From a bacterium (lineage in GTDB: Bacteria; Patescibacteriota; Minisyncoccia; 2-02-FULL-40-12; IGHO2-12-FULL-4), in assembly GCA_030647955.1 (NCBI GenBank), contig JAUSIQ010000031.1, positions 2,920 to 66,919 on the forward strand: a DNA stretch of 64,000 bases, written 5' to 3'. Below the pieces are notes generated by a model. The model saw only the letters and a program-made list of their open reading frames with translations, searched no databases and was not told the DNA's origin. Both the position numbers and the translations under genes were made by a program. Below are positions 1,326-51,049 of this stretch, piece after piece. Position 1 is the first letter of the stretch. Each line of letters starts with the position of its first letter.

Positions 1326-2774
1326 ATGAAGATCCCTAAAGAAATTGAATTAATTCTCGAAGAACTTCAAGAGCATAGCTTTGAAGCTTTTATCGTGGGT
1401 GGATGCGTCCGCGATCTTTTGATGGGCAAAGCCCCGAAAGATTGGGACGTAACCACCAATGCTCGCCCCGAAGAGATCCAAAAAATATTTCCCGACAGCT
1501 TCTATGCAAACGAATTCGGCACTGTGGGTATCAAAACCGATCACGCAGAGAAAAGTCTTCAAGTGGTCGAGACCACCACTTATCGTACCGAATCCAGCTA
1601 CTCTGATCAGCGCCATCCTGATTCCATCAAATTCGCTACTACCTTAGAAGAAGACCTAAAGCGTCGCGACTTCACTATCAACGCCTTGGCCATGGACAAA
1701 GAGGGCAAGGTCATTGATTTGTTTTCCGGACAAGAAGACTTGAAAAAAAAGATTATTCGCGCCGTGGGCGATCCCCAGGAAAGATTTTCCGAGGACGCTC
1801 TGCGCATGATTCGCGCCATCCGCTTTGCCACGGTATTGGAATTTGAGATCGAAGCGGCCACTCTCGAAGCTATCAAAAAAAACGCAGGATTGATGGAAAA
1901 AATTTCCCAAGAGCGAATTCGTGACGAACTTGTTAAAACCATCTCCGCCGACCAGGCCAGTAGGGGAGTAGAGTTGTTACGCGAGACCAACCTTATGCCC
2001 TTCGTTATTCCCGAGCTTTTAGAAGGCGTTGATGTCGGACAGAACCTCCACCATATTTATACCGTATGGGAGCACAACGTGCGTGCTTTGCAGTATGCCG
2101 CCGACAAGCAATATTCCGTCGCCGTGCGCCTGGCTTCGTTATTGCACGATGTTGGCAAGCCCCGTTCCAAGAGAGGAGAGGGTAAGTACTCTACTTTTTA
2201 CGGACACGATATGATCGGCGCCAAAATGAGCATCAAGATTTTAGCGCGCCTGAAATTTTCCAAAGATCTCTCTGAAAAAATTACCAAACTGGTGCGTTGG
2301 CATCTCTTCTATTATAACGTGGGGGAAGTGACCGAAAGTTCGGTGCGCCGCTTGGTAGCCAATATCGGCAAAGAGAACGTTGAAGACCTCGTTAAAGTAC
2401 GGGAGGCGGACCGGATCGGCTCCGGCACACCCAAAGCCCATCCCTACAAACTTCGCCACCTCCAGTTTATGATCGACAAAGTAGCCCGCGACCCTATCTC
2501 TCCCAAAATGCTAAAGCTGAACGGTAATGAGCTCATGACCCTCTTGGGCTTGCCACCCGGCCCAAAAATTGGGATGATTTTAGCTGCCCTAATGGAAGAG
2601 GTTTTGGACGATCCCGCCAAGAATACTAGAGAGTTCCTGGAAAATCGTAGTCGAGAGTTATCAACCTTATCGGAAAAGGAGTTAACGGATTTGGCCCAAA
2701 AGGGTAAAAGTAAGTTGGCGGAGGAAGAAGAAAAAGCCATTAAGAAAATCAAACAGAAACATTACGTTGAGTAA
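1326..2774 (+). CDS. cca: CCA-adding tRNA nucleotidyltransferase with C-terminal HD domain
   Basis: N-terminal GGCVRDLLMG...DWDVTT pol-beta nucleotidyltransferase head; HD motif LLHDVGKP; 482 aa. It sits beside tRNAs that lack an encoded CCA. Confidence 0.85.
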   Translation: MKIPKEIELILEELQEHSFEAFIVGGCVRDLLMGKAPKDWDVTTNARPEEIQKIFPDSFYANEFGTVGIKTDHAEKSLQVVETTTYRTESSYSDQRHPDSIKFATTLEEDLKRRDFTINALAMDKEGKVIDLFSGQEDLKKKIIRAVGDPQERFSEDALRMIRAIRFATVLEFEIEAATLEAIKKNAGLMEKISQERIRDELVKTISADQASRGVELLRETNLMPFVIPELLEGVDVGQNLHHIYTVWEHNVRALQYAADKQYSVAVRLASLLHDVGKPRSKRGEGKYSTFYGHDMIGAKMSIKILARLKFSKDLSEKITKLVRWHLFYYNVGEVTESSVRRLVANIGKENVEDLVKVREADRIGSGTPKAHPYKLRHLQFMIDKVARDPISPKMLKLNGNELMTLLGLPPGPKIGMILAALMEEVLDDPAKNTREFLENRSRELSTLSEKELTDLAQKGKSKLAEEEEKAIKKIKQKHYVE

Positions 2775-2832
2775 CTCGCCTCTGCGAGCTGCCGGGCTTC
2801 GCCCGTCGTAGCTTCGTCACTGCGAGCGAAGA

Positions 2833-2904
2833 CGGGGTATAGTGTAGCGGCAACACGGGTCGTTCGGGTCGATCAGACGCTGGGTTCGACTCCCAGTACC
2901 CCGA
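2833..2904 (+). tRNA. tRNA-Pro (anticodon CGG), no encoded CCA
   Basis: Acceptor CGGGGUA/UACCCCG, anticodon stem GGUCG/CGAUC, loop UUCGGGU, T-arm CUGGG-UUCGACU-CCCAG, discriminator A. Confidence 0.8.
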
Positions 2905-3210
2905 CTGAATGAAATGAAGGAGGAGTACAGCAAGCCAACAATTTGGCTTGCGTTGGGAGGAGAAGGGCAAGTCTATGTTTTTTTCAAAAACAGACTTGCC
3001 CCGGCCCGCAGGGGACCCCAGTACCCCGACATATATAAAAGAAAGGACCTTCATAGGCCCTTTCTTTTATATTAGTGAAGCTGGGAGTCGAAGGGTATCG
3101 AGAAAAAGTAAACAGTTTTACTTTTTTGAGAACCCCGGCCCTGGGGGAGAAAATTTCGATGTGCAGCAGGCACCAGAAATTTTCGGAGGAAGGGGACTCC
3201 CAGTACCTCC
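2905..3210 (+). repeat. tRNA-Pro-linked insert with two reiterated copies of the tRNA 3' end and a conserved ~125-nt structured module (3085-3210)
   Basis: CCCAGTACCCCGAC (tRNA 2892-2905) recurs at 3017-3030. GACTCCCAGTACC (2888-2900) recurs at 3195-3207. The module 3085-3210 is about 85% identical to 5643-5772 and contains hairpins GAAAAAGTAAAC/GTTTTACTTTTTT and GAAAATTTCGAT/ACCAGAAATTTTC. Confidence 0.6.
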
Positions 3211-3345
3211 CCAAATTCCCTATATTCCATACCCCATTTTTTGTTCATAAGACGCGTTTATAATTTAATTAAAAAAGCCACAGCCTAACCCAAGAAAAAA
3301 GGTAATTAGTACAGAAAGCCCTCATATTGACTTTTTGCTCAAAAA

Positions 3346-4623
3346 GTGCTAGAATATAAGGATCCGTTAATGCCCAGATACCCCTCTATGAAACGACTAC
3401 TTGCATTTGTTTTAATGCTCCTAATTATATCCCTTTCCGGGGCTGTTTCGGTTAGTGCGGCTCCTGCGCCGGCCAGCGTTGACATAGAGAATTATGGCTT
3501 TCGCAGCCAAGGAGTACTCTTTCAGAACTTGGATGTTCGCAATGGAAACCAGGTGGAAGTTGTGGTGAGCCTAAGAAATAACTCTTCTAATACTGCTCAG
3601 GGGGTGCGTTTAAATGTTTATCTTCATTACTCCATGCGAGAAGTCCAGGGAAGCGTTAAAATAAACGGCCTACTGGCCAGTGGAAGTGCTACTACCGGAA
3701 TTATAGTAGGAAGCATGGCGGCAGGGGAGAAGAAGGAAATCTCCTTTAAAGCTACCCCGGGCGGAAGCATGGAAGGCGACACTGAAATTCAAGCCCAGGT
3801 ATCCGGCAGTAATATCGGAACAATAACAAAGTTCGCTTTTATTAATGTTCTGCCTCGAACCACTCTTCCTACTCCTACACCTATTACCACTCCAGCCCCT
3901 ACTCCGAATCCCACACCGGTCTATACTCCTACGCCAACACCAGTTTTCACACGTACACCAGCTCCCACTCCGAAGATAACCTCTAAAACTCCGACACCTA
4001 CTCCTATAACCCAAACTCCCACTCCGACCCCAACCGGCACTGTTTATATTTACGGAGACAGAGTGAGCATGAGCGTCATCCAAGTAGGACGCAATATTAC
4101 CGAAGAACAACAGGTGCCTACCAAAGAAATTACCGCTCGCCCCGGAGATGAGTTGGAGTTTTCTATTCAACTGACCTCTAATAGCGATCAGGTGATCAAA
4201 AATATCGTCATCACCGACCGTTTACCGGATCAAGTAGATTACATCTACAACACTACCCGCATGAACGATCAAACTATTAATGATGACGTGGTCCGTGGCG
4301 GCTTTATTTATGGAGACTTGCAGCCGCGCGAGATTAAAAGCATCACATATCGTGTCCGCATTTTGCCTGATCCCCAGTTTGAGAAAGGGGAAGTAGAACT
4401 GCAGAACATCGTAGAGATTATTTCCGACAATGCCACTACCGCTAAAGACACGACCAAGATCTTCGTTAAGGAAAAGCAGTCTAGATTATTGAGCGGATTG
4501 CTATCGCCTTCCGGTTTGGGACTTTATCTTGTCATCTTTATGGCCGCACTAGTGACCCTCTTCCTAACCTTCTGGGTACAGGAACGAAAAAAGACCCGAA
4601 CCCTTCTTGCCACTCAGAGCTAA
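3346..4623 (+). CDS. secreted cell-surface protein with PT-rich linker and C-terminal membrane anchor
   Basis: Signal peptide MKRLLAFVLMLLIISLSGAVSVSAAPAP (likely start at 3388); TPTPT repeat linker; C-terminal LSPSG + hydrophobic stretch + ERKKTR tail. Confidence 0.65.
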   Translation: MLEYKDPLMPRYPSMKRLLAFVLMLLIISLSGAVSVSAAPAPASVDIENYGFRSQGVLFQNLDVRNGNQVEVVVSLRNNSSNTAQGVRLNVYLHYSMREVQGSVKINGLLASGSATTGIIVGSMAAGEKKEISFKATPGGSMEGDTEIQAQVSGSNIGTITKFAFINVLPRTTLPTPTPITTPAPTPNPTPVYTPTPTPVFTRTPAPTPKITSKTPTPTPITQTPTPTPTGTVYIYGDRVSMSVIQVGRNITEEQQVPTKEITARPGDELEFSIQLTSNSDQVIKNIVITDRLPDQVDYIYNTTRMNDQTINDDVVRGGFIYGDLQPREIKSITYRVRILPDPQFEKGEVELQNIVEIISDNATTAKDTTKIFVKEKQSRLLSGLLSPSGLGLYLVIFMAALVTLFLTFWVQERKKTRTLLATQS

Positions 4624-4626
4624 TTT

Positions 4627-4648
4627 AAAAACCCCGTACGGGGTTTTT
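4627..4648 (+). terminator. rho-independent terminator
   Basis: AAAAACCCCGTACGGGGTTTTT hairpin immediately after the stop codon at 4623. Confidence 0.7.
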
Positions 4649-4659
4649 AAATTATAATT

Positions 4660-4733
4660 GATCCCGTTAGAGAAAAGCCGCCCCAAGGCGGCTGAAGCCA
4701 CTCGCCTGCGGCGAGAGCGTTCTCTAACGGGAT
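4660..4733. repeat. hairpin element with 13-bp terminal inverted repeats GATCCCGTTAGAG / CTCTAACGGGAT (family copy 1)
   Basis: Termini at 4660-4672 and 4722-4733. The GC-rich core holds nested hairpins GCCGCC-CCAA-GGCGGC and CTCGCC-TGC-GGCGAG. The same termini recur at 40433-40506. Confidence 0.6.
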
Positions 4734-4792
4734 TGACACTCCTACTCAATAAAGTACGATCAGCTTATCGATCTTTCACAACAGGAGTGGAT

Positions 4793-5458
4793 GTGCCCAG
4801 ACGACATCTAAAAAATTGTCAGTTAGGAATTTTTGATTGGAACGGAACGTTAGTCGATGATCTGCCTTTAGTACTGGAAAGCGTTGCGCGCATCTTTAAA
4901 CATTTTAAGACACCAATTCCCCACGATCTCGCCACAAAATATCGTGAGCAGATTACCGCCAATTTCTCTAAATTCTATCATCATCACGGTATACCATCAC
5001 ATATTACCGCTGAAGAAATGAACGCCCAAAGAGTAAAGTTTTTTAAGAAGTATCGCAGTTGCACTCGTCTTCGAGCTCACGCAAAACAAGTTCTCACATT
5101 CTGCAAAGCTCTCGGCTCAGTGCAAATTGGTATTGTTAGTGCAGAAGTTAATGAATTATTAAGAAAGGGCCTGCGTGATCTCGAGATAGAGGAGTACTTT
5201 GACTTTGTCTGGGCCGACACCCGAGATAAAACTGCTGCCCTGGAAGATGCCTGCGATGCGTTTGAAGTTCATCCCTCCAGAACATTTTATGTCGACGACA
5301 CCTGCGAAGGTGTTCGAGCCTCGGCCGCCACCGGTGTTATTCCAGTAGCACTCGTGACTCCCACCAGCTACGCCCCCGAAGCACTCCTAAGAGAGGAGGC
5401 TCGAGCCAAGAAGGCGATTATTATCACCGATCTTGCTCAGATTAAGCAGTTAATTTAA
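4793..5458 (+). CDS. HAD-superfamily hydrolase (phosphatase-like)
   Basis: Motif I IFDWNGTLVDD near the N-terminus. The 4658 ATG in the ORF track lies inside the upstream hairpin element, so the real start is probably GTG 4793, preceded by AGGAG at 4782-4786. Confidence 0.55.
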   Translation: MPRRHLKNCQLGIFDWNGTLVDDLPLVLESVARIFKHFKTPIPHDLATKYREQITANFSKFYHHHGIPSHITAEEMNAQRVKFFKKYRSCTRLRAHAKQVLTFCKALGSVQIGIVSAEVNELLRKGLRDLEIEEYFDFVWADTRDKTAALEDACDAFEVHPSRTFYVDDTCEGVRASAATGVIPVALVTPTSYAPEALLREEARAKKAIIITDLAQIKQLI

Positions 5459-5476
5459 AACCCGTTCGGGTTTTTT
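5457..5476 (+). terminator. rho-independent terminator
   Basis: AAAACCCGTTCGGGTTTTTT. Confidence 0.65.
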
Positions 5477-5510
5477 CTTTTTTAGGGGCTGTGCTAGGAT
5501 GTACCCAAAC

Positions 5511-5581
5511 GGGCTCGTAGTTCAGTGGTAAAACGCCGCATTCGCATTGCGGAGGCGCGGGTTCGATTCCCGCCGAGTCCA
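5511..5581 (+). tRNA. tRNA-Ala (anticodon CGC), no encoded CCA
   Basis: Acceptor GGGCUCG/CGAGUCC with G3:U70, anticodon stem CCGCA/UGCGG, loop UUCGCAU, T-arm GCGGG-UUCGAUU-CCCGC. Confidence 0.8.
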
Positions 5582-5772
5582 CAAATGAAACTTCGGGATC
5601 ACTTTCTGAAGTGGTCTAGAGGTTTCATGCTGTACCCGCCGAGAATCGAAGGGTATTGAGAAAAAGTGAACAGTTTCACTTTTTCGAGAACCCGGGCTCT
5701 GGAGGAGAAAATTTCGATATGCCAAAGGTATCAGAAATTTTCGGAGGAAGAGGATTCCCGCCGAGTCCACCA
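5582..5772 (+). repeat. tRNA-Ala-linked insert: partial copy of tRNA 3' end (5634-5642), conserved ~125-nt module (5643-5752), then a 20-nt copy of the tRNA 3' end with CCA (5753-5772)
   Basis: GATTCCCGCCGAGTCCA of tRNA 5565-5581 is repeated as GATTCCCGCCGAGTCCACCA at 5753-5772. The module is homologous to 3085-3210 and carries hairpins GAAAAAGTGAAC/GTTTCACTTTTTC and GAAAATTTCGAT/ATCAGAAATTTTC. Confidence 0.6.
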
Positions 5773-5830
5773 ATACAAATGATTCGAGCTTGGTACAATA
5801 AACACACTTAATATTATTAATTCCGCCATT

Positions 5831-7843
5831 TTGTATCCCAATAAATTTAAAATTTTAGGAGCAGGCGTAATAGTAGCCCCTCTCCTCGTCCTTATACTAG
5901 GAAGCCACGCGGACTTTGCCTTAACAGCTCCAGCTTCAGGCTTCCCTGGCGGCTTTGTAGAAAAATCAAATTCCATCCAAACCCGACCCATTTTAAAAAC
6001 AACTGCTCAACTAAGCTTTGTGCCTAGTGGTCGCGGTGGCTTTACCTTTCCTGCTCCTTACAATACCCGAGGTTCCCGCATTACGATACCTGCCGACGGT
6101 ACAGTTTATCCAGTAGGGTATTCTTACTGGCGGGTTATGAATAACCACGTTGGTTCCAACACCATGTACATAGCCATAGGTACCACAAGTGGCCCGATCC
6201 TCTTTAGTTACGACAAAACAACTGAGGCCGTTCAAAGTCTTGGTGCCATGACCTTCGCAGGGAACACAGAAGGGATGTACTTTAGCGCGACACAACCTAA
6301 TAGATTATATTCCTTTACTGGCACCCGTCTCCTGGCCTACGATGTCGTATCAAGGACAACTCAAACGGTTTTTGATATCGCCAGTAACACTGCTCTTTAT
6401 GGAAGTAATCGTTATCTCTGGCAAGTCCATTCCAGCAACAATGATGATGTCCATTCCGCTACCGTGAGAGACGGTGCAACCTACAATATGCTCGGTTGTA
6501 TGGCCTACAAGGTCAGCACCAATCAATGGTTCTGGTATCCACGAATAGGGGATTTTGATGAATGCCAAATTGACAAAGGTGGTCGTTGGCTAGTCATTAA
6601 AGAAAATGTCGATGCGCTATACGACGTAGATAATCGCTTCATTGACCTGACCACAGGAATTGAAAAACGCATCCTAGATCAAAACGGGGCTGTTGGTCAC
6701 TCTGACAATGGTTTTAATTACACTATTGGCGCTGATAACTGGGATAATGATTCATTTAGCACCAAAGTGTGGCAATTTGCAACTAATCCTCTTACCGGAC
6801 TGGAAGTATACAAAGCTGCAAATTGGTCTGCTGGTGGCCCCCAACACATCAGTCATACCAACGCTACATCTGCTGACTCAAACATCCAATATGCCTGCGG
6901 GAGCGGTGCTGATTCAGGCAGTGATCCTCATGGCAATGAACTGCTGTGCTTCAAGTTGGACGGTTCTTTAGATACCCTCATCATTGCTCCAATCATGACT
7001 AACCTGGCTGCAGCTGGAGGGGGAGACTCCTATGGTAAACAGCCTAAAGCCAATCTTGATGTCACCGGACAATACGCTCTTTGGACAGCAAATTTAGATA
7101 GTGGTCGATTAGATGTTATCCTGGCTAAGATTCCGTCCCAGGTGCTGATGGGATTCGGACCTACCCCAACCCCTACCCTCACACTAACTCCTGTTCTCGG
7201 TGTCACTCCTACCCCGACGCCAGTACCGAGCACACCTCCTACACCCGTACCCACCCCTATTCCGAACGTCAACCTCCCTCCTGTTCAGCCGAAGCTGGAT
7301 AATATCCCTTCCTCTACGGATTATATCCCCCCATCGACCGATAACCGTTCCACTAAGGTAGTGAGGAGGCCCCCTGCAAGGTTAACTGATTTTAATTTGA
7401 AGGAAGGGGACGTGGTTTCAGCAGTTGGGTCAGCTGATCCCGATATTTATATTGTGAATGAGCATGGGTATAGGCGGCTATTCCTTAATCCAGTTATCTT
7501 TAGCTTCTATGGTCATCTGGGAGGATTCCACGCAGTTAAATCCATTAGTCCAAATATCCGTGATGCGTTCCCGGCTACGCAGTTTTTCAGAAATTGTGAA
7601 ACGAACGATCCTAAAATCTATGCTCTTGAGGTAACCGGAGAAGACACGGGCATTCTCCATCATATAAATATGACTGGGGATCAGGCGGCCGCAGAAGATG
7701 CTGATTTTTTCTCACAGGTATTCTGTATTAACACTCGAGAGTTTAGCTGGTATGCTTTGGGCGATGCTTATAGCGCCCTATCCCAAGTACCGACGTATGA
7801 GAGAACTCAGGCCATTTCCCAACCAAGTCAATCCACTCCTTAG
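5831..7843 (+). CDS. large secreted protein with PT-rich linker, hypothetical
   Basis: 670 aa; N-terminal signal/TM MYPNKFKILGAGVIVAPLLVLILGSHA; PTPTPTLTLTPV...TPTPTPVPSTPPTPVPTPIP linker; no catalytic motif recognised. Confidence 0.6.
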   Translation: MYPNKFKILGAGVIVAPLLVLILGSHADFALTAPASGFPGGFVEKSNSIQTRPILKTTAQLSFVPSGRGGFTFPAPYNTRGSRITIPADGTVYPVGYSYWRVMNNHVGSNTMYIAIGTTSGPILFSYDKTTEAVQSLGAMTFAGNTEGMYFSATQPNRLYSFTGTRLLAYDVVSRTTQTVFDIASNTALYGSNRYLWQVHSSNNDDVHSATVRDGATYNMLGCMAYKVSTNQWFWYPRIGDFDECQIDKGGRWLVIKENVDALYDVDNRFIDLTTGIEKRILDQNGAVGHSDNGFNYTIGADNWDNDSFSTKVWQFATNPLTGLEVYKAANWSAGGPQHISHTNATSADSNIQYACGSGADSGSDPHGNELLCFKLDGSLDTLIIAPIMTNLAAAGGGDSYGKQPKANLDVTGQYALWTANLDSGRLDVILAKIPSQVLMGFGPTPTPTLTLTPVLGVTPTPTPVPSTPPTPVPTPIPNVNLPPVQPKLDNIPSSTDYIPPSTDNRSTKVVRRPPARLTDFNLKEGDVVSAVGSADPDIYIVNEHGYRRLFLNPVIFSFYGHLGGFHAVKSISPNIRDAFPATQFFRNCETNDPKIYALEVTGEDTGILHHINMTGDQAAAEDADFFSQVFCINTREFSWYALGDAYSALSQVPTYERTQAISQPSQSTP

Positions 7844-26748: not shown

Positions 26749-27102
26749 TTAGACAATATTGGCTTTTTGTAATATATCTCTTAAGCTACTACTGACTTCC
26801 CTATATTTTTTATTTTTAACTCCGGTTTGAGCCATAATTATAAAATCTGTATGAGAAGTTTTCGAGTTTGAAACCGCTGTGACAATATTTCGAAGAGCAG
26901 CACTAATCGTTCTTTTAAGTTTATTTCTCTCTACGGCTTTAGAAGCAATGGATACCGGAACTACTATCGCCGCTCGATCAGTTAAGAGACTGTTCCTAAT
27001 AAATTTGATCAGAAAAAAGCTATTACGCAGACTAGAACCGGTCTTCAATATTTTTTCAAAGTCTTTTTTCTTCTTTATTCTGCTTTGTTTAGGTAAAGCC
27101 AT
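26749..27102 (-). CDS. rnpA: ribonuclease P protein component
   Basis: 117 aa basic protein with KLKR motif; start codon overlaps rpmH stop (TAATG); canonical rpmH-rnpA order. Confidence 0.75.
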   Translation of the reverse strand: MALPKQSRIKKKKDFEKILKTGSSLRNSFFLIKFIRNSLLTDRAAIVVPVSIASKAVERNKLKRTISAALRNIVTAVSNSKTSHTDFIIMAQTGVKNKKYREVSSSLRDILQKANIV

Positions 27103-27239
27103 TAAATAGTCAATTTCTTTCTTCCTTTGCGCATGCGGCGACGCAAAACTTTCTGTCCCGCATTAGTGCGTGATCTTTTTAAAAACCCGTGTTTTTTCTT
27201 TCTTTTCCTGGACTTGGGACGATAAAGTGTAGCTTTCAT
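27102..27239 (-). CDS. rpmH: 50S ribosomal protein L34
   Basis: Not in ORF track (45 aa). Reverse-strand translation gives [45 protein letters not shown]. Confidence 0.85.
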
Positions 27240-27529
27240 TTCTTTCTAGTTAGTATTCACTTCTGTACGGCTTTCAGAAGTAAAGACTTCCTGTATTAAA
27301 CATTTTCTTTACCATTCTCGGACTTATTCACATATGTAAACTGCCTGGGCCGCTTAAGTAGGAGAATGAATGTGCTTTAAATCATAATAAAATTTTCCGC
27401 AAATGTCAAAGAGTCAAATTTACTCTTTCCACTTTTTATACACAGGTTATGCACCGTTCAAGATTGTTCTTTATTCCATTTATTTGAAGTACAATACCCC
27501 TATAAGATAAGTATTATTTTCTCGCCACT

Positions 27530-28894
27530 ATGACAAAGGAAGAATTATGGAAAGCAGTACTAGGAGAGATGGAAACATCTTTGTCTAAAGCTAATTTTAC
27601 CACCTGGTTTAAGAACACCTCAATTGTCGCTAGCGAAACTGATTCGATCGTCGTTAGTGTTCCAAATGGATTCATCAAAGAATGGTTAGAAAATAAGTTT
27701 AATAAACAAATTCTAACCTCTATCCAACACCTCGTTCCGGAGATTCGAGAGGTGCGCTACACTATTGGTAATAATAATCCGTTTTTAAATGCCAAGAAGG
27801 ATTTCTCTCAGTTCGTACCAGACAAATTAGCGGACCAGAAACAATCCGGAGAAGTTAACCCTCAAACCAACTTAAATAAGAAGTATTCTTTTGATTCCTT
27901 TGTGGTGGGTTCTCATAACGAACTGGCTCATGCGGCTACTTTGGCCGTTTCTAAAGGACCGGGAAAGGTTTATAACCCGCTATTTCTTTATGGGGGAGTG
28001 GGGTTAGGAAAAACCCACTTATTACAATCCACTGGCAATAAAGTCTTAGAAGATGATCCTACTAAGAAGATTCTCTACATTCCGTCCGAGCGTCTTACTC
28101 AAGAAATTGTTGAATCGGTACGTAATAAAAGCGTAGAAGATTTAAAACATCGTTACGCCAAAATTGATGTATTAATCATTGATGATATTCAATTTATTGC
28201 CGGTAAAGAAAAGACCCAAGAAATTATTTTCTCTACCTTCAACGAACTTTACGGAAAGAATAAACAGATCATCCTATCCTCAGATCGTCCTCCTAAGGCC
28301 ATCCCAGCCCTCGAGGAGCGCCTCCGCTCCCGCTTTGAAGGGGGAATGATCGCTGACGTCAGTTTACCGGATTACGAGACACGTTTGGCTATTTTAAAAA
28401 TGAAATCAAAGCAGAAAAACTTTGAATTAGATGAGAATGTTTACAGTTATATTGCCACTAATATTCAAAAGAATATTCGCGAGCTAGAAGGAGCTTTAAA
28501 TCGAGTTATAGCGGTCAGTCAAATATATAATAAGAGCCTAGACCTTAAAGAAGTAAAAAAGCTCTTAGTAACCTACTTAAGTACGCCATATAAGAAGACT
28601 ACTCCTCAATTAATTTTAAAATCTGTCTCCGATTTTTATGGTATCTCCCTTCAAGATCTCGTCAAAAGAAGCCGCAAAAAAGAAGTAGTCCGCCCTCGAC
28701 AAATTGCTATGTATCTTTTGCGAGAAGAAACCAAGTCTTCTTTTCCAGAAATCGGCCAAAAATTAGGCGGACGCGACCACTCTACTGTTATCCATGCTTA
28801 CGAAAAAGTTAAAACCGAAGAAGAAAGCGACGAAGCAACCAAACAAGAATTAGTATTAATCAAAGAAAGAATTTACCAGTCTATGGATAAGTAG
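27530..28894 (+). CDS. dnaA: chromosomal replication initiator DnaA
   Basis: Walker [12 protein letters not shown], Walker [10 protein letters not shown]-terminal DNA-binding helix RPRQIAMYL; 454 aa. Confidence 0.95.
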
Positions 28895-29137
28895 CTGTTT
28901 ATATCTATGTGTATAAACCAGGGATAAGAGTGGGATGATTGCGCTAACCTACCCCAAATAGCCAATTTTATCCCAGAGTTATTCCCAGTTGCCCATAAGT
29001 TATCACAAATCTATCCATAAAAAATTTAAGCGTACTAGCCTAAGAACACTATACGTAATAAGGTAATTCCGAAGAGAGAGGAGATGATTGTGGATAAGTA
29101 GTACGCTCTCTAATAGTAGATATCTTATATTTAAGAA
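28895..29137. promoter_or_regulatory. candidate oriC: DnaA-box cluster between dnaA and dnaN
   Basis: Perfect TGTGGATAA at 29089-29097. Near-boxes TGTGTATAA 28908-28916, TTATCCCAG ~28967, TTATCACAA 29000-29008, TATCCATAA 29012-29020. AT-rich tracts present. Confidence 0.6.
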
Positions 29138-30226
29138 ATGATTATAACTATTAACCAACGGAAGGTGAAAGAAGCTTTAGCGGTTACGGAGAAAATTGTC
29201 TCTAAGAATTTAGCTTTGCCTATTTTACAAAACGTTGTGATTAGAACTGAAAATGGTCGGGTCAAAATTTCCTCCACAAATTTAGAGATCGGGATTAATT
29301 TCTGGCTAGGAGCGAAGATTGAGGAGGAGGGGGATGTGGCTATTCCGGCTCGTCTCTTTTCGGAGTTTATTAACAATGTCCAAAGCGAAAAAGTAACTAT
29401 TAGTACCAAAGAGAACATCGCCTATATTAATACCGAAAACTCTAAAACTAAGATTATTGGTTTTCCGGCGAAAGATTTTCCAATTATTCCCAAGAATAAA
29501 AACACCCCTTTTGTTACCTTGGGAGCTAAAAAGATTTGGCAGTTATTTAGCGCGGTGATTGATTCCGCTTCTCTTTCCGAGGCTAGGCCGGAGTTAGCAG
29601 GGGTATTTGTGCATTTCTCTCCGACTAAAATTGAAAGTGCAGCCACAGATAGTTTTCGTCTTGCTGAACAGGTGATCTATGAAAATGGGAAAATTGATCA
29701 GAGTATGATTATCCCTAAGACCACCATCCAAGAGCTTATACGGGCCCTAGGAGATCGGGAAGAGGATATTGCACTGTCTCTATCGGAAAACCAAATCTTC
29801 TTCTCTACGAGCGATTTTGAGATCGTCTCTCGTTTAATCGATGGACACTATCCGGAATACAAAAGAGTCATCCCTGAAAAATTCTTATCCAAATATACTC
29901 TCTCCAGGGAAGAGCTAGAGAAAAGCGTGCGTTTAGCGAGTATTTTTACCTCTAGTATTGCCGATATTAAATTACAAGCCGATAAAGATGGTTTTAAGGT
30001 TTTAGCTAAGAACGCTGATAAAGGGGAGGTAAATTTGTCTGTGCCAGGAACGCTAAAAAATGGACCATTTGGGATTGCTGTAAATTATCGCTATCTTTTA
30101 GATGGTTTAAAAATCATTCCTACTTCTCAAGTAGAAATCGAGTTTACAGGAGAGGGGAGTCCTTTAATTTTACATCCAGAAGGTAAAACAGACTTTACTT
30201 ATTTAATCATGCCTCTCCGTAGTTAG
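29138..30226 (+). CDS. dnaN: DNA polymerase III beta sliding clamp
   Basis: 362 aa; position after dnaA; clamp-like three-domain length; LPILQNV motif. Confidence 0.9.
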   Translation: MIITINQRKVKEALAVTEKIVSKNLALPILQNVVIRTENGRVKISSTNLEIGINFWLGAKIEEEGDVAIPARLFSEFINNVQSEKVTISTKENIAYINTENSKTKIIGFPAKDFPIIPKNKNTPFVTLGAKKIWQLFSAVIDSASLSEARPELAGVFVHFSPTKIESAATDSFRLAEQVIYENGKIDQSMIIPKTTIQELIRALGDREEDIALSLSENQIFFSTSDFEIVSRLIDGHYPEYKRVIPEKFLSKYTLSREELEKSVRLASIFTSSIADIKLQADKDGFKVLAKNADKGEVNLSVPGTLKNGPFGIAVNYRYLLDGLKIIPTSQVEIEFTGEGSPLILHPEGKTDFTYLIMPLRS

Positions 30227-40428: not shown

Positions 40429-40432
40429 TATG

Positions 40433-40506
40433 GATCCCGTTAGAGGTTTCGCTCGTGACCAAGTCGCGAGTCCGTAGGACCTCGGCGGGGCTACCTCTAA
40501 CGGGAT
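40433..40506. repeat. hairpin element with terminal inverted repeats GATCCCGTTAGAG / CTCTAACGGGAT (family copy 2)
   Basis: Termini 40433-40445 and 40495-40506. Core differs from copy 1 but is again GC-rich with internal hairpins. Lies between the nusA stop (40428) and the tig ATG (40505). Confidence 0.6.
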
Positions 40507-41788
40507 GGAGATTAATTTAAAACGGGGAAAAAACTCTGAAGCGGAGCTGAAAGTCGAGCTCACGCAAGAAGACCTCAAACAATACATTAAAAAAGCCGGC
40601 GAAGAAGTGGCGGCTTCAGTGGCCATGGACGGTTTTCGAGCCGGCAAGGTTCCTTTGGATGTGGTCAGAAAGAAAGTGGGGGATGAGAAGATTTTGGAGG
40701 TGGCCATGGATTTGGCTATTAAAGAGAGTTTTTTTCAAGCTATTAAAAAGGAAAAAGTAGATATTATTTCTTCTTCGGATTTGAAGGTGATCGATAACAC
40801 CGCGGAGAAGTTGAAATACGAAGTGAAGATTATTCTTTTTCCGGAGGTGAAATTGGGAGAGTATAAGAATTTAGGAATGAGTCTTAAGCCGGTCAGCGTC
40901 AGCGAAGAAGAAGTGCAGGATACTTTAAAATATATTCAAAAAACTCGAGCGGAGTATAAGGAAGTAGAAACTCCGGCCGAAAAAGATCACCGGCTCGAAA
41001 TCGATTTCGAAGTCAAAGATAAAGGAGCGGTGATCGACGGAGGAAAGAGTGAGAATCATCCTGTGGTCCTGGGGGAAGGCAATTTTATTCCTGGCTTTGA
41101 GGATCACTTGGTGGGGATGAAAAAAGGAGAAACGAAAAACTTTTCTCTGGAGGTGCCGGGGGATTATTATCAAAAAAGTGTGGCTGGCAAGAAACTCGAT
41201 TTCTTGGTAACTATTAAGACTATTAAAGGAGCAATTCTGCCGGAGTTAACGGACGATTTTGCGAAGAGCCTAGGAAAGTTTGAGTCAGTGGAGGATTTAA
41301 AAAAGAATGTTAGTCGCGGTTTGCAAAGCGAAAGAGATCAGAAAGAGCGAGACCGTGTACGTTTGTTGATTCTCGATAAAGTTAATGAAAAAACCGAGAT
41401 GGAAGTTCCGGATAAAATGGTGGAAGAGCAGCTGGATATCATGGTGAGTAATTTCGATCAGAACCTCCACGCCAGGGGATTGGAGCTAAGTCTTTATCTA
41501 ACTCAAATCAGCAAGACTCAAGATGAGTTGCGCAAAGAATGGCGAGAGCGAGCCGTGAAACAGATTCGACAAGGATTAATTATGCGGGCTATCAGCAAAG
41601 CAGAAGAAATCAAGGTGGGCGAAGAAGAGGTGGCTCAAGCCGTCGGGGCGCTGTTAAGTCGCTATGCGGGAGCGGAAGAACTACAAGCTAAGGTTGATCC
41701 GGAAGAGCTAAAAAACAGAGCAAAGGAATCTCTACTTAACGAAAAGGTATTTGATTATCTCGAGAAAGAGAATATCAAAGAAAACTAA
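40505..41788 (+). CDS. tig: trigger factor
   Basis: Ribosome-binding signature GFRAGKVP, FKBP-like middle domain; 427 aa. Confidence 0.85.
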   Translation: MEINLKRGKNSEAELKVELTQEDLKQYIKKAGEEVAASVAMDGFRAGKVPLDVVRKKVGDEKILEVAMDLAIKESFFQAIKKEKVDIISSSDLKVIDNTAEKLKYEVKIILFPEVKLGEYKNLGMSLKPVSVSEEEVQDTLKYIQKTRAEYKEVETPAEKDHRLEIDFEVKDKGAVIDGGKSENHPVVLGEGNFIPGFEDHLVGMKKGETKNFSLEVPGDYYQKSVAGKKLDFLVTIKTIKGAILPELTDDFAKSLGKFESVEDLKKNVSRGLQSERDQKERDRVRLLILDKVNEKTEMEVPDKMVEEQLDIMVSNFDQNLHARGLELSLYLTQISKTQDELRKEWRERAVKQIRQGLIMRAISKAEEIKVGEEEVAQAVGALLSRYAGAEELQAKVDPEELKNRAKESLLNEKVFDYLEKENIKEN

Positions 41789-44037: not shown

Positions 44038-44226
44038 TGTCCGCCCACTAGGAGTTGGTCTCGGCTCTCGTTCGCCCGTCGGCGAACTCGGCCTAACCAC
44101 CAGCTCGCCATGTCATCTACTGACGACATATGGCTCCGCTGTTCAACTCCTAACGCCAGCCAAGTAGTTGGCTGGCTGTGGTCTGTTAAACATAAAGAGA
44201 CCCTTCGGCCTCTTTATGTTTACATG
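44038..44226 (-). repeat. tRNA-Lys-linked insert ending in a reiterated tRNA 3' end
   Basis: CCGCCCACTAGGAGTTG at 44040-44056 repeats the tRNA-Lys 3' end (44228-44245). An inverted partial copy TTCAACTCCTAACG lies at ~44146-44160. GC-rich hairpins. Motif CTCGGCCTAACCACCAGC is shared with the tRNA-Ile insert. Confidence 0.55.
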
Positions 44227-44299
44227 TCCGCCCACTAGGAGTTGAACCTAGAACCTTATCCTTAAGAGGGATCTGCTCTGCCAATTGAGCTATGGGCGG
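44227..44299 (-). tRNA. tRNA-Lys (anticodon CUU), no encoded CCA
   Basis: Acceptor CCGCCCA/UGGGCGG, anticodon loop CUCUUAA, T-arm CUAGG-UUCAACU-CCUAG. Confidence 0.75.
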
Positions 44300-45927: not shown

Positions 45928-46965
45928 ATGAAAATATTTAGTAGGACTTCAGCAGTTGTGACGGCTGTAGTTTTTGCGTTCGGTTTGGCTGGGCTGCTCA
46001 TAGCTAGAGCGGCAAGCACGCCATCTCTCGGGACAGCGGCAACTTATGGTGTTCTTGCCAGTACCTACACCAATACGACGGCGGGGACCACGGTTAATGG
46101 AGATATTGGATTCACTACTGGACCGGCAGTTACTCCCTTAGGTGTGCATACCAATTACGGATCTGGCGCCCCTTACGCAACAGCTGGCACGGATCAGGGC
46201 AGTGCCTTATCTGCTCTGGCTTCCCAGCCATGCACGTTCACTTTTGCGTCCGGAGCAATTAATCTCTCTACTGACACCACTCACGGTCCAGCTGGGATTT
46301 ATACGCCTGGAGTGTATTGTACAACAGGCGCTGCATCCATCGGAACAGCGGGAATTACTCTCTCCGGTGGGGGGACGTATATCTTCAGAGTAGATGGTGC
46401 ACTTACTACGGTAGCTAATTCTGTAGTCACGTTAGCCGGTGGTGCAGCAGCTTGTGATGTATTTTGGACTCCAGCCGCGGCCACCACGCTTGGTGCCAAT
46501 TCCACTTTTGTGGGAACTAACATTGATGCCGCAGGTATTACTATTGGTAGTACCGTAGCGTGGACGGGAAGAGCGTTGGCATTCGGCGGAACGGTCACAT
46601 CTGATGCCGATACTATTACAGTGCCGGCGTGTGCGGCCCCCACTCCGACTCCGACTCCCACGCCTACTCCCACGCCTACACCAACCCCTACGCCCACACC
46701 GACACCCAGTGTAGCCCCGACTCCTACTCCCAGCTTAACTCCTACTCCCACTCCTACGCTCAGCGTAACACCCACGCCGACTCCTCTTGCTCCGACTATT
46801 ACACCTGCGCCTAGCGTATCGATTACGCCATCGTCTGCTCCAGCACTGCCGAATGCGGGAATTGCTCCTGATGAGAAAAATACAACCTGGAGTATTATTA
46901 CGCTGGCTGGGATATTTGCGGTTGCGATCTTCTTCTACCTTGCTCGAAGAAAACAAATAATCTAG
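45928..46965 (+). CDS. cell-surface protein with DUF3494/ice-binding-like beta-solenoid domain, PT linker and C-terminal sorting signal
   Basis: [34 protein letters not shown] resembles the ice-binding-like family. Long (PT)n linker. C-terminal LPNAG, hydrophobic stretch, RRKQ tail. A sortase gene follows. Confidence 0.55.
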
Positions 46966-47678: not shown

Positions 47679-47723
47679 CTTCTGCGGAGAACGGGAGTCC
47701 TTCTCTTTCTATATTTTTCTACC

Positions 47724-47877: not shown

Positions 47878-48531
47878 TTAAGCCAATTCGGCCTTGGTTA
47901 GCTCCAGCCATTTGAGCATCTTTTCTTTCAACTGACGACTGTGGACGTAAATAGTACAGATCCCAAAAGATTTTTGTTTAGTACGGGCTTTGTTCGATAC
48001 AACCACAGATTTTCTAAAGAGAGGACTGGGTATGCCGGTCGCTTTGCTCCAGAGGTTCTTATGGACCGTTTCGGCTAAACCGGGGTAGAGGTAAAGCCGG
48101 CAAGAGATTTTGTCAGCCTTTACGGTTTTGGATAGAAAAGAAAAGAACAGTTTTGTCATATCAAAATCGTTGGAAGAAAAACGGACTACCGAACTCTCCG
48201 GGCTTAAATCGCCCTGGCTCCAGTAAAGAATGATGGCAGGCAAGAATAGGGGATTTTTCTGAAGGATCGTAAATTCTTCTTCGGCCTGGGTTTGGGCGGA
48301 TTGTCGCCATGCCTGCCAGCGCTGGCGATTAACCGCGGCCATTTTTTTTATCTTTTGCGCGGCACCGACGCGAGAGGGAGTACTGAGGGAATCACGAACC
48401 AGTATCGACCAGGGCTGGTCTCTAAACCAACCACTCAGGGTGGCTTTGGGGATACCTAGTTTTTTAGTGATCTCCGCGTAGCTCTTACCTTGTTGACGTA
48501 AGGCCACGGCTTTTTCACGGTCATTTCGCAT
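47878..48531 (-). CDS. HTH-domain protein, possibly transposase- or mobile-element-derived
   Basis: N-terminal helix-turn-helix KAVALRQQGKSYAEITKKLGIPKATLSGW typical of IS630/IS30-type transposase DNA-binding domains; no DDE motif; 217 aa; beside a tRNA cluster. Confidence 0.4.
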   Translation of the reverse strand: MRNDREKAVALRQQGKSYAEITKKLGIPKATLSGWFRDQPWSILVRDSLSTPSRVGAAQKIKKMAAVNRQRWQAWRQSAQTQAEEEFTILQKNPLFLPAIILYWSQGDLSPESSVVRFSSNDFDMTKLFFSFLSKTVKADKISCRLYLYPGLAETVHKNLWSKATGIPSPLFRKSVVVSNKARTKQKSFGICTIYVHSRQLKEKMLKWLELTKAELA

Positions 48532-50574: not shown

Positions 50575-50803
50575 TTTCGACTATATATTAATGTAATGAG
50601 TACACCCGTAAAGTTAATCAAGAATCCGACAAAGATCGTAAAGTGGTTGCCGGTAAGTAATCCTTCGGGGGTTTCCAGGCCAATGTTTAAGTGATGCAGA
50701 ATGTCTAAAACCAAGCCGACTGCCTCGACCGCTGTACCGAATAGACTAATCTTGATTCCTTTTTGGAAGGTATTCATTTGTTTAATTGTTATTAAGCTTT
50801 TTT

Positions 50804-50853
50804 ATCCAAGACCAAAAGCAAACTATTGCTTTTGGTGGGCGCGCTTGGATTCG
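50804..50853. repeat. 50-bp direct repeat carrying a copy of the tRNA-Ile 3' end plus downstream hairpin (second copy 50944-50993)
   Basis: ATCCAAGACCAAAAGCAAACTATTGCTTTTGGTGGGCGCGCTTGGATTCG is identical at both positions. It includes the 21 nt of tRNA-Ile from T-loop to CCA and the hairpin CCAAAAGCAA/TTGCTTTTGG. The ~90-bp segment between copies is GC-rich. Confidence 0.65.
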
Positions 50854-50972
50854 GTTTCGCCTCTCGCCTCGCCAGGCGCTCGGCTCGGGCTAACCACCGC
50901 TTCGTGATTCCGCCTGCTGGCGAAATATCACTCCGGCGTTCTCATCCAAGACCAAAAGCAAACTATTGCTTT

Positions 50973-51049
50973 TGGTGGGCGCGCTTGGATTCGAACCAAG
51001 GACCGCCGAGGTATAAGCTCGGTGCTCTAACCGACTGAGCTACGCGCCC
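50973..51049 (-). tRNA. tRNA-Ile (anticodon UAU), CCA encoded
   Basis: Acceptor GGGCGCG/CGCGCCC, anticodon stem CCGAG/CUCGG, loop CUUAUAC, T-arm CUUGG-UUCGAAU-CCAAG, ACCA end. Confidence 0.7.

Follow-up and report, generated by a model that had tools for sequence, protein, structure and literature searches.

Why should the 3' end of a tRNA gene be repeated, twice and in direct orientation, in the DNA that follows it? The question is posed by the tRNA-Pro(CGG) gene in a 64,000-nt stretch of DNA (contig JAUSIQ010000031.1 of assembly GCA_030647955.1, positions 2,920 to 66,919; hereafter the window), whose origin is a Yanofskybacteria-like Parcubacterium of the candidate phyla radiation (CPR). 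Our data show that two tandem members of an undescribed family of folded non-coding modules, ∼110–140 nt long, stand behind this gene, that a third stands behind tRNA-Ala, and that the family occurs behind many tRNA genes of Parcubacteria. The modules are most likely tiny mobile insertions rather than ordinary spacer DNA. An earlier reading of the stretch from its letters (hereafter the sequence-only reading) had left the choice between a small integrative element that targets tRNA 3' ends and a structured RNA co-transcribed with tRNAs. These two alternatives are not mutually exclusive and are partly supported, neither being proven: we found both signs of insertion and a fold on the sense strand, but the target appears to be the T-loop and not the tRNA 3' end as such.

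Two tandem modules behind tRNA-Pro

The tRNA-Pro gene is intact and is followed by modules A and B. Their features, numbered from the first letter of the window, are given below; R1 is a covariance model built from six copies of sequence type 2, and loci outside the window carry L numbers.

2833–2905, plus strand: intact tRNA-Pro(CGG) (ARAGORN; Rfam tRNA, 53 bits), without encoded CCA, then CTGAATG
2906–2929, plus strand: trailer of module A, CTGAATGAAATGAAGGAGGAGTACA, homologous to the trailer after tRNA-Pro in L007
2930–2951, plus strand: P0 hairpin of module A, GCAAGCCAA caat TTGGCTTGC, from folding; the conserved first helix of type-1 modules
2952–3013, plus strand: core of module A (fold z = -6.2; weak R1 match, E = 0.24)
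3014–3030, plus strand: displaced tRNA-Pro 3'-end copy no. 1, GACCCCAGTACCCCGAC (16/17; exact 14-mer at 3017–3030)
3037–3068, plus strand: A-tract, hairpin and T-tract, AAAAGAAAGG...CCTTTCTTTT, read by eye and not called by a simple terminator scan
3081–3092, plus strand: 5' arm of module B, CTGGGAGTCGAA, reverse-complementary without mismatch to tRNA-Pro positions 54–65
3093–3194, plus strand: core of module B, type 2 (fold and covariation; R1, 149.8 bits)
3195–3207, plus strand: displaced tRNA-Pro 3'-end copy no. 2, GACTCCCAGTACC, which starts at tRNA position 57 and is decayed in its remaining part, 3208–3213

The two reiterations of the tRNA end from which the sequence-only reading started are exact, CCCAGTACCCCGAC at 3017–3030 (17 nt with one mismatch over 3014–3030) and GACTCCCAGTACC at 3195–3207, and by chance one would expect ∼1e-5 such exact matches of 13 or 14 nt in 1.2 kb. 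Segment 3037–3068, which lies between them, resembles a terminator and is probably a former tRNA trailer. As 2930–3030 is a separate module with its own tRNA-Pro copy, the locus holds two tandem units, and the extra hairpins that had been pointed out in the Pro insert (2930–2951 and 2965–3001) are present and are now assigned to the first of these units. In module A the 5' arm TGGGAG (2954–2959) complements the T-stem 3' strand of tRNA-Pro, and the core holds the long hairpin GGGCAAGTCT/AGACTTGCCC at 2965–3001 and then a linker; the homologous trailer in L007 reads CTGAACAAAGTGAAGGAGGGATGA and likewise leads into a P0 hairpin. In module B the 5' arm pairs with 3195–3203 to form helix P1, helix P2 (GGGU...ACCC) bears a tandem GA/GA internal loop and hairpin 1 at 3102–3127, and helix P3 (CCCU/AGGG) bears a GGAGGA internal loop and hairpin 2 at 3149–3184.

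Four sequence types of the module can be told apart by eye, and one plan is common to all of them: a 5' arm, GAA(C/G), two helices each bearing a hairpin, and then the tRNA copy. It folds into a three-way junction with the two hairpins as arms, and the 5' arm and the tRNA copy make the closing helix P1. The claimed identity of ∼85% between the segments behind tRNA-Pro and tRNA-Ala holds on formal alignment (3080–3201 versus 5638–5759, 85% over 122 nt, gapless), and two blocks of 19–22 nt are confined in the window to modules B and Ala, with 0–0.06 expected by chance. The two stem-loops that had been noticed in both copies are good folds when compared with shuffled sequences (z = -4.8 and -3.4).

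Covariation supports the fold in each of the larger groups. The consensus of the six type-2 copies has P2 as GGGU/ACCC with the tandem GA/GA loop and an 11-bp hairpin, and P3 as CYCU/AGRG with the GGAGGA loop and the second hairpin; 93.9% of its cells are paired versus 84.6% after shuffling and at most 62% with slid partners. Compensatory changes occur in 14 of the 41 pairs, a count reached by none of 500 shuffles. Addition of three type-3 copies and a tRNA-His copy (n = 10, in a model-fitted alignment) gives 95.5% paired cells and 24 of 41 pairs with compensatory changes. For type 1, 92% of cells are paired versus 74% after shuffling and at most 46% with slid partners, 29 of 42 pairs show compensatory changes, and the P0 helix has them in six of its seven pairs (seven type-1 copies). 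In L040 the lower stem of hairpin 2 has been replaced at nearly every pair with pairing retained. The junction nucleotides, namely GAA, the tandem GA/GA loop and GGAGGA, are highly conserved. Cells with G.U outnumber those with A.C (30 versus 11, binomial p = 0.002), which places the fold on the tRNA-sense strand; a fold of one strand excludes a duplex protein-binding palindrome and is compatible with both RNA and single-stranded DNA. Protein coding was rejected for the same region. The sequence-only reading had called it free of open reading frames (ORFs), which is not literally so, since mechanical ORFs do cross both type-2 copies, but these lie in different frames, no frame is conserved between copies, and the hairpins covary.

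Arms matched to the cognate tRNA

What ties a module to the tRNA gene in front of it is the pair of arms. The 5' arm complements the T-stem 3' strand and part of the T-loop of the cognate tRNA, and the 3' arm repeats the tRNA sequence that starts at T-loop position 57 and ends with the discriminator; CCA and the original trailer often come next. Core and copy meet at C56|R57 in types 1, 2 and 3 and in the tRNA-His copy, type-4 copies being irregular, and in 16 out of 16 cases the copy opens with the same G or A as the tRNA. Such a T-loop junction corresponds to one of the recognised crossover sublocations of genomic islands in tRNA genes (tDNA islands), which are the anticodon loop, the T-loop and the T-stem/acceptor junction (PMC4383910). 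One core occurs with different tRNAs, namely Pro, Ala, Ser, His, Asp and Met.

The 5' arm appears to be matched to the functional gene rather than to the displaced copy. In ten modules it is a perfect 12–15-nt complement of the functional tRNA, and the complement spans (G)TTC, a motif missing from the distal junction. The arm fits the proximal tRNA better than the distal copy in L022 and L017, and between L009 and L037 it follows the single difference in the tRNA-Pro T-loop, C59 versus T59. All three observations would suit a structured non-coding RNA with a tRNA-linked cellular role, either as part of the tRNA trailer or as a separate small RNA, and so do the strong covariation, the highly conserved junction nucleotides and the sense-strand fold. 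In such an RNA the 5' arm would be antisense to the cognate T-arm, the 3' arm would be an internal decoy or mimic of the tRNA 3' half, and a factor that binds the three-way junction could set whether the antisense arm disturbs folding or processing of the tRNA precursor. A read-through transcript is predicted to have a stable alternative fold that uses the distal instead of the proximal 3' end. Modules start only 4–8 nt after the tRNA in the short tRNA-His (L050) and tRNA-Met (L015) cases, which makes co-transcription likely there, and the core is more conserved than the tRNAs between distant genomes: apart from the module core (84–87% identical), the window and L050 align only in their tRNA genes, at 77%.

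Other features fit a cellular RNA poorly, and on balance we consider it somewhat unlikely, though a serious contender. The modules have a patchy distribution, with ∼20% of tRNAs concerned, these differing among genomes, and none in the sampled stretches of many relatives. Several sequence families coexist, and tandem, truncated and decayed copies are found. Many copies are separated from their tRNA by a strong terminator-like hairpin. Moreover, the 3' tail past P1 has decayed in some copies (module B, L009), so that the acceptor-CCA part is not under selection there.

The arms also bring to mind a nucleic-acid-guided device, intron-like or guide-RNA-like, in which base pairing would direct the element or a partner enzyme to its site of action. 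The 5' arm together with GAA(C) would span 56|57 of the intact tRNA (or its gene) like an internal guide sequence, and the 3' arm would correspond to the opposite strand, in the way of a 3' exon or of a 3' guide placed after the scaffold. Retargeting of the arms to each tRNA around a constant core speaks for such a device, as does the complementarity of GAA(C) to the (G)TTC that is present in the intact tRNA only. A scaffold followed by 13–21 nt of target sequence also has some likeness in layout to transposon-encoded guide RNAs. On the other hand, an Rfam search as lenient as E = 10 gives no ribozyme, intron or transposon RNA. P1 ties up the guide-like 3' arm, a gene for a partner protein is not adjacent, and a complete tRNA and a spacer precede the module, leaving no 5' exon. 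We regard a device of this sort as highly improbable. Less so, but still distinctly unlikely in our view, is a self-guided element, whose arms carry both strands of the T-arm and whose pairing with the tRNA (or its gene) would program a reaction at 56/57, be it insertion or replacement of the 3' part. It would represent a new CPR-specific class of nucleic-acid-guided mobile or repair RNA (or single-stranded DNA).

Spread of the modules and signs of insertion

Relatives of the window were identified through its CCA-adding-enzyme gene (1326–2774, upstream of tRNA-Pro; Pfam), the closest relatives of which are 52–74% identical and come from Candidatus Yanofskybacteria and other metagenome-assembled Parcubacteria. 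They have in common the gene order Ala-GGC, Arg-CCT, cca, Pro-CGG, a variable stretch and Ala-CGC. The survey covered 103 tRNAs in the window (64 kb) and 22 related genome loci (up to 21 kb each). A copy of the tRNA's own 3' end (16-mer, at most three mismatches, within 450 nt) follows 20 of the 103 and precedes none, as compared with 0.9% for non-cognate pairs of tRNA and flank, an association far in excess of chance; a complementary 12-mer (at most one mismatch) is found downstream of nine tRNAs and upstream of one. Per sampled stretch there are several modules or none. A pattern scan of metagenomes added copies behind tRNA-Ser(GGA), tRNA-Pro(TGG) and tRNA-Pro(CGG). R1 retrieved the short copy behind tRNA-His in L050 and three copies in L015 (E = 5e-11 to 2e-7), and the latter matches make types 2 and 3 one family. 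Type 1 comprises the window's Lys and Ile modules and five from relatives, often with the extra P0 hairpin and then GT. The remaining modules of the window are as follows.

5511–5582, plus strand: intact tRNA-Ala(CGC) (ARAGORN, Rfam), without encoded CCA, then CAAATG
5635–5752, plus strand: second type-2 module, behind tRNA-Ala (R1, 144.3 bits; core 87% identical to that of module B)
5753–5772, plus strand: displaced tRNA-Ala 3' end GATTCCCGCCGAGTCCA, positions 57–73, and encoded CCA (18-nt copy; CCA at 5770–5772)
44039–44176, minus strand: type-1 module behind tRNA-Lys(CTT) (44226–44299), fold z = -6.6
50833–50950, minus strand: type-1 module behind tRNA-Ile(TAT) (50973–51049), with 5' arm CTTGGAT, core and a 21-nt exact copy including CCA
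47683–47698, minus strand: degenerate tRNA-Cys 3'-end copy (14/16), with GAGAAGG just before it

The Ala module is aberrant at its 5' arm, where 9 nt, CCCGCCGAG, are a direct and not an inverted copy of the tRNA and are followed by AATCGAA; its closing helix is weak. Besides its P0 hairpin and the 5' arm TAGGAGTTGAAC, the Lys module has two hairpin arms, and its copy of the tRNA 3' end is exact over 19 nt (44039–44057); the complement and the copy lie at offsets of 74 and 169 from the tRNA. At tRNA-Ile the repeat runs 37 nt into the trailer (58 nt, 95% identical, 50796–50853 versus 50936–50993), and both here and at the tRNA-Met of L015 an extra repeat of tRNA end, spacer and 5' arm follows the module and ends exactly at the boundary of arm and core. 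The degenerate tRNA-Cys copy may be a module remnant. The inverted 5' arm of module B, the continuation of the Ala copy through CCA and the modules at Lys and Ile had all escaped the sequence-only reading.

Directly upstream of tRNA-Cys, at 47878–48531 on the minus strand, a 217-aa protein is encoded in which the sole recognisable feature is an N-terminal transposase-like helix-turn-helix, all matches being below the Pfam cut-offs.

Several comparisons between genomes point to insertion. Empty sites were sought in the relatives and found: in the closest of them (L001) tRNA-Pro is separated from tRNA-Ala by 8 nt and by no module, L008 (identical tRNA-Pro 3' end) and L004 (nearly identical) have none behind tRNA-Pro, and the tRNA-Lys sites of L015 and L020 are empty. 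The host flank resumes past the distal tRNA copy. Beyond the distal tRNA-Ala copy, L022 and L014 have orthologous flanks (85% over 515 nt), but their inserts differ, and the flank of an empty site in L005 is similar to that on the distal side in L007. None of the five tRNA-Ala(CGC) genes with a module has a proximal CCA, and in all five the distal copy is followed by CCA or CCC, as in the window, where the Ala gene itself has no CCA and its displaced end does (5770–5772); module-less orthologues encode CCA in 6 of 10 cases. By this pattern, the distal copy is probably the original 3' end of the tRNA. Lengths of the duplicated repeat vary (13, 18–21, 36 and 58 nt), as is expected if an incoming segment brings its own tRNA end and some trailer. 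An insert may also be larger, as in L012, where 830 nt with a 141-aa ORF (no Pfam family) lie between tRNA-Glu and a type-1 module. Decayed copies are found as well: those of L037 and L039 are truncated, hairpin 2 is deleted in L042 as compared with L050, and the tail is lost in L009.

Taken together, an island-like signature with small size, no recombinase gene, no distal inverted-repeat core and a retargeted, covarying fold favours miniature, non-autonomous elements without an integrase, which enter at T-loop position 56/57, regenerate the tRNA and have their fold recognised by a trans-acting enzyme. We hold this reading at roughly even confidence; mobility itself, the direction of the event, action in trans, the kind of enzyme and the choice between RNA and single-stranded DNA we infer rather than observe directly. 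A segment made of tRNA positions 57–73, a trailer, occasionally some cargo, and the folded module would enter the tRNA gene between 56 and 57. The 3' end that it carries would restore the tRNA, and the original 3' end would be displaced downstream, often with its encoded CCA and its own terminator. The fold with its target-matching arms would be the recognition or recombination end of the element, and as a folded single strand, RNA or single-stranded DNA, it would be read by an enzyme supplied from elsewhere. The logic would be that of tDNA-integrating genomic islands at 100–300 bp, with the integrase not inside.

Inert scars of deleted tRNA-integrating islands or prophages, each leaving a displaced fragment and a conserved attachment-site arm, could account for the same picture. 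The classic signature of an island is a displaced 3' fragment that keeps CCA and a terminator of its own (PMC4383910), other tRNA remnants exist in the same genomes (Ala-TGC with the whole T-arm in L014, an inverted Pro in L017), and the gene content between tRNA-Pro and tRNA-Ala is hypervariable among relatives. However, independent deletions would not leave one 110–140-nt unit about twenty times, and compensatory evolution of hairpins, as in the L040 stem, is unexpected for duplex protein-binding sites or neutral scars. No integrase-bearing island was seen beside any module, pattern scans of IMG/VR gave nothing, or chance matches without module features, and a blastn comparison of two modules with GenBank phages was negative. 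Scars seem quite improbable to us.

A number of points weigh against the mobile elements that we favour. Conservation equal to or above that of tRNAs is equally expected of a useful cellular RNA under purifying selection. Both arms are retargeted in most of the different tRNAs that have the same core (the 5' arm at Ala being the exception), for which a protein-only site-specific recombinase is a poor explanation. Neither an excised circle nor an empty/filled polymorphism within one species was seen, and exact-protein look-ups for same-strain empty-site alleles returned only one 1.6-kb contig, which ends before any module. The distal junction has no inverted-repeat core of the kind used by tyrosine integrases, the sequence to the left of position 57 being unlike the T-stem 5' strand. 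A tyrosine integrase was sought in vain among the ORFs scanned with Pfam, that is 40 of the 56 non-overlapping window ORFs of at least 90 aa and 10 from the variable Pro–Ala intervals of relatives, and no transposase, HUH nuclease or reverse transcriptase was found there either; these ORFs encode housekeeping, surface and metabolic proteins only. As the scans span at most 21 kb per relative and part of the window, the absence says little about whole genomes. The genes dnaA (27530–28894) and dnaN (29138–30226) lie beside the minimum of the cumulative GC skew (27000–29500), which makes the window chromosomal and probably places the replication origin within it. In the window 11 of 12 tRNA genes are oriented toward the origin, i.e. 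head-on to replication, and on either replichore the strand that folds serves as leading-strand template, which weakly disfavours action on single-stranded DNA at the replication fork in the manner of IS200/IS605.

Known systems and neighbouring features

How far do the modules resemble systems already described? Genomic islands with a regenerated tRNA, a displaced 3' fragment and a crossover in the T-loop region form a recognised class (PMC4383910). The modules share with such islands an intact regenerated tRNA, the direct orientation of the 3' fragment, the T-loop crossover, tandem stacking and a host flank that resumes. They differ in that they insert only 100–300 bp (∼900 bp in L012) and have neither an integrase nor a distal inverted-repeat core. 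Unlike in islands, moreover, the module end next to the displaced fragment is a covarying three-way junction, the 5' arm is complementary to the target, and one core serves many tRNAs.

Integron attC sites are similar in that structure prevails over sequence and the fold is strand-specific, in size, and in their position 3' of optional cargo. The inner arm ends, GAAC and GTTC, recall the RYYYAAC and GTTRRRY of attC. The junction of the modules is nevertheless GTTC|R and not G|TT, and the distal arm starts at R57 without GTT. Nor is there an IntI among the scanned ORFs or an array beyond two units, and the platform is a tRNA gene. Cis-mobilizable elements (CIMEs), palindrome-associated transposable elements (PATEs) of the IS200/IS605 type and repetitive extragenic palindromic (REP) elements are, like the modules, small, gene-less, multicopy and hairpin-forming, and would depend on mobilisation in trans. 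The modules have no known parent element, however; their arms are target-specific instead of being fixed ends, and the duplicated tRNA 3' end on their flanks varies in length (13–58 nt). A constant scaffold between target-matching segments also recalls the internal guide sequence of group I introns, the guide RNAs of IS200/IS605 and the bridge RNAs of IS110, and the 3' target-matching segment directly follows the scaffold as in guide RNAs. In contrast to all of these RNAs, the modules have no Rfam match and no associated protein gene, and their target-matching segments pair with each other.

Database and literature searches agree with the sequence-only reading, which had not recognised a described element. 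Rfam (15) returned only tRNAs, both at E ≤ 10 over 2600–6100 and at the gathering score over the whole window, and searches of the full-text literature brought up no description of such modules, the nearest papers being PMC13011429 and PMC4383910. The former reports group I introns in tRNAs of Patescibacteria at position 35/36, in the anticodon loop (PMC13011429). A group I intron was rejected for our modules, since the tRNAs are intact and uninterrupted, no Rfam intron matches and the size is wrong. The module core is too small for an intron of this group. A hammerhead is of the wrong size, and its core motifs are absent by eye. Terminal pairing of the kind seen in retrons is present, but the neighbours encode DUF11, HAD and unknown proteins and no reverse transcriptase. 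An IS200/IS605 element or guide RNA was discarded for lack of an Rfam match (2600–6100) and of an OrfB or Y1 transposase among the window ORFs scanned with Pfam. Tandem duplication of a whole tRNA followed by decay would demand repeated exact deletions to give the 4–8-nt spacers at His and Met, and target-site duplication by a cut-and-paste transposon leaves the inverted arm unaccounted for. Promoter-like -10 hexamers upstream of some copies were not significant.

If miniature elements are indeed at work, the tRNA genes of CPR bacteria, whose genomes are tiny, host a hitherto unnoticed class of integrative elements. What is conserved in them would be a folded single strand, a natural insertion module retargeted by change of two short arms, and part of the variability in gene content beside these tRNA genes could be explained. 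Should the modules be cellular RNAs instead, they would be the first tRNA-specific antisense-plus-decoy RNA family and offer a handle on tRNA maturation in uncultured organisms. Whichever holds, the two RNA-like families defined here have covariance support and lend themselves to searches. The modules are worth masking or annotating in CPR genomes, where the displaced tRNA fragments to which they give rise can confuse tRNA annotation.

Some further observations concern the surroundings of these tRNA genes. The interval between tRNA-Pro and tRNA-Ala (2905–5511 in the window; L003–L020) ranges from 8 nt (L001) to 4.9 kb and is a hotspot of gene content without a recombinase gene; its cargo is unrelated and includes a DUF11 surface protein, a HAD hydrolase, a dCTP deaminase, an aromatic amino acid lyase and DUF5715. 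In L017 (∼10900–11140) the space between tRNA-Ala(CGC) and a degenerate distal copy holds a small ORF for a GIY-YIG nuclease (Pfam E = 2e-17), and the end of an ORF upstream of tRNA-Pro in L009 (∼9150–9240) resembles by eye the C-terminus of this protein. As a single case, the L017 ORF does not establish a pattern of a mobilising gene near the modules. Some 700 nt before its functional tRNA-Pro, on the upstream side, L017 also has a tRNA-Pro 3'-end remnant in inverted orientation (7395–7450), complete with CCA and terminator, and an apparent metallo-beta-lactamase-like ORF (by eye) stands between the two. A REP-like palindrome, CCCTGCCTGCCGGCAGGCAGGG, stands beside tRNA fragments in L009 (9495–9520) and, in L014, downstream of tRNA-Ala(CGC) and tRNA-Ala(TGC); in L014 it stands in for the T-stem 5' strand of the displaced tRNA-Ala copy, of which the anticodon arm is retained.

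Elsewhere in the window, 12-nt periodic repeats rich in proline and threonine (3866–3965 and 46619–46784) occur in two predicted surface proteins, one with DUF11 and one ice-binding-like. Between nusA and the trigger-factor gene, at 40430–40510, there is a long hairpin of ∼80 nt, CCCGTTAGAGGT...ACCTCTAACGGG, which has no Rfam match and is 86% identical over 72 nt to positions 2460–2531 of L040, a distant metagenome contig; it may be a conserved small RNA.

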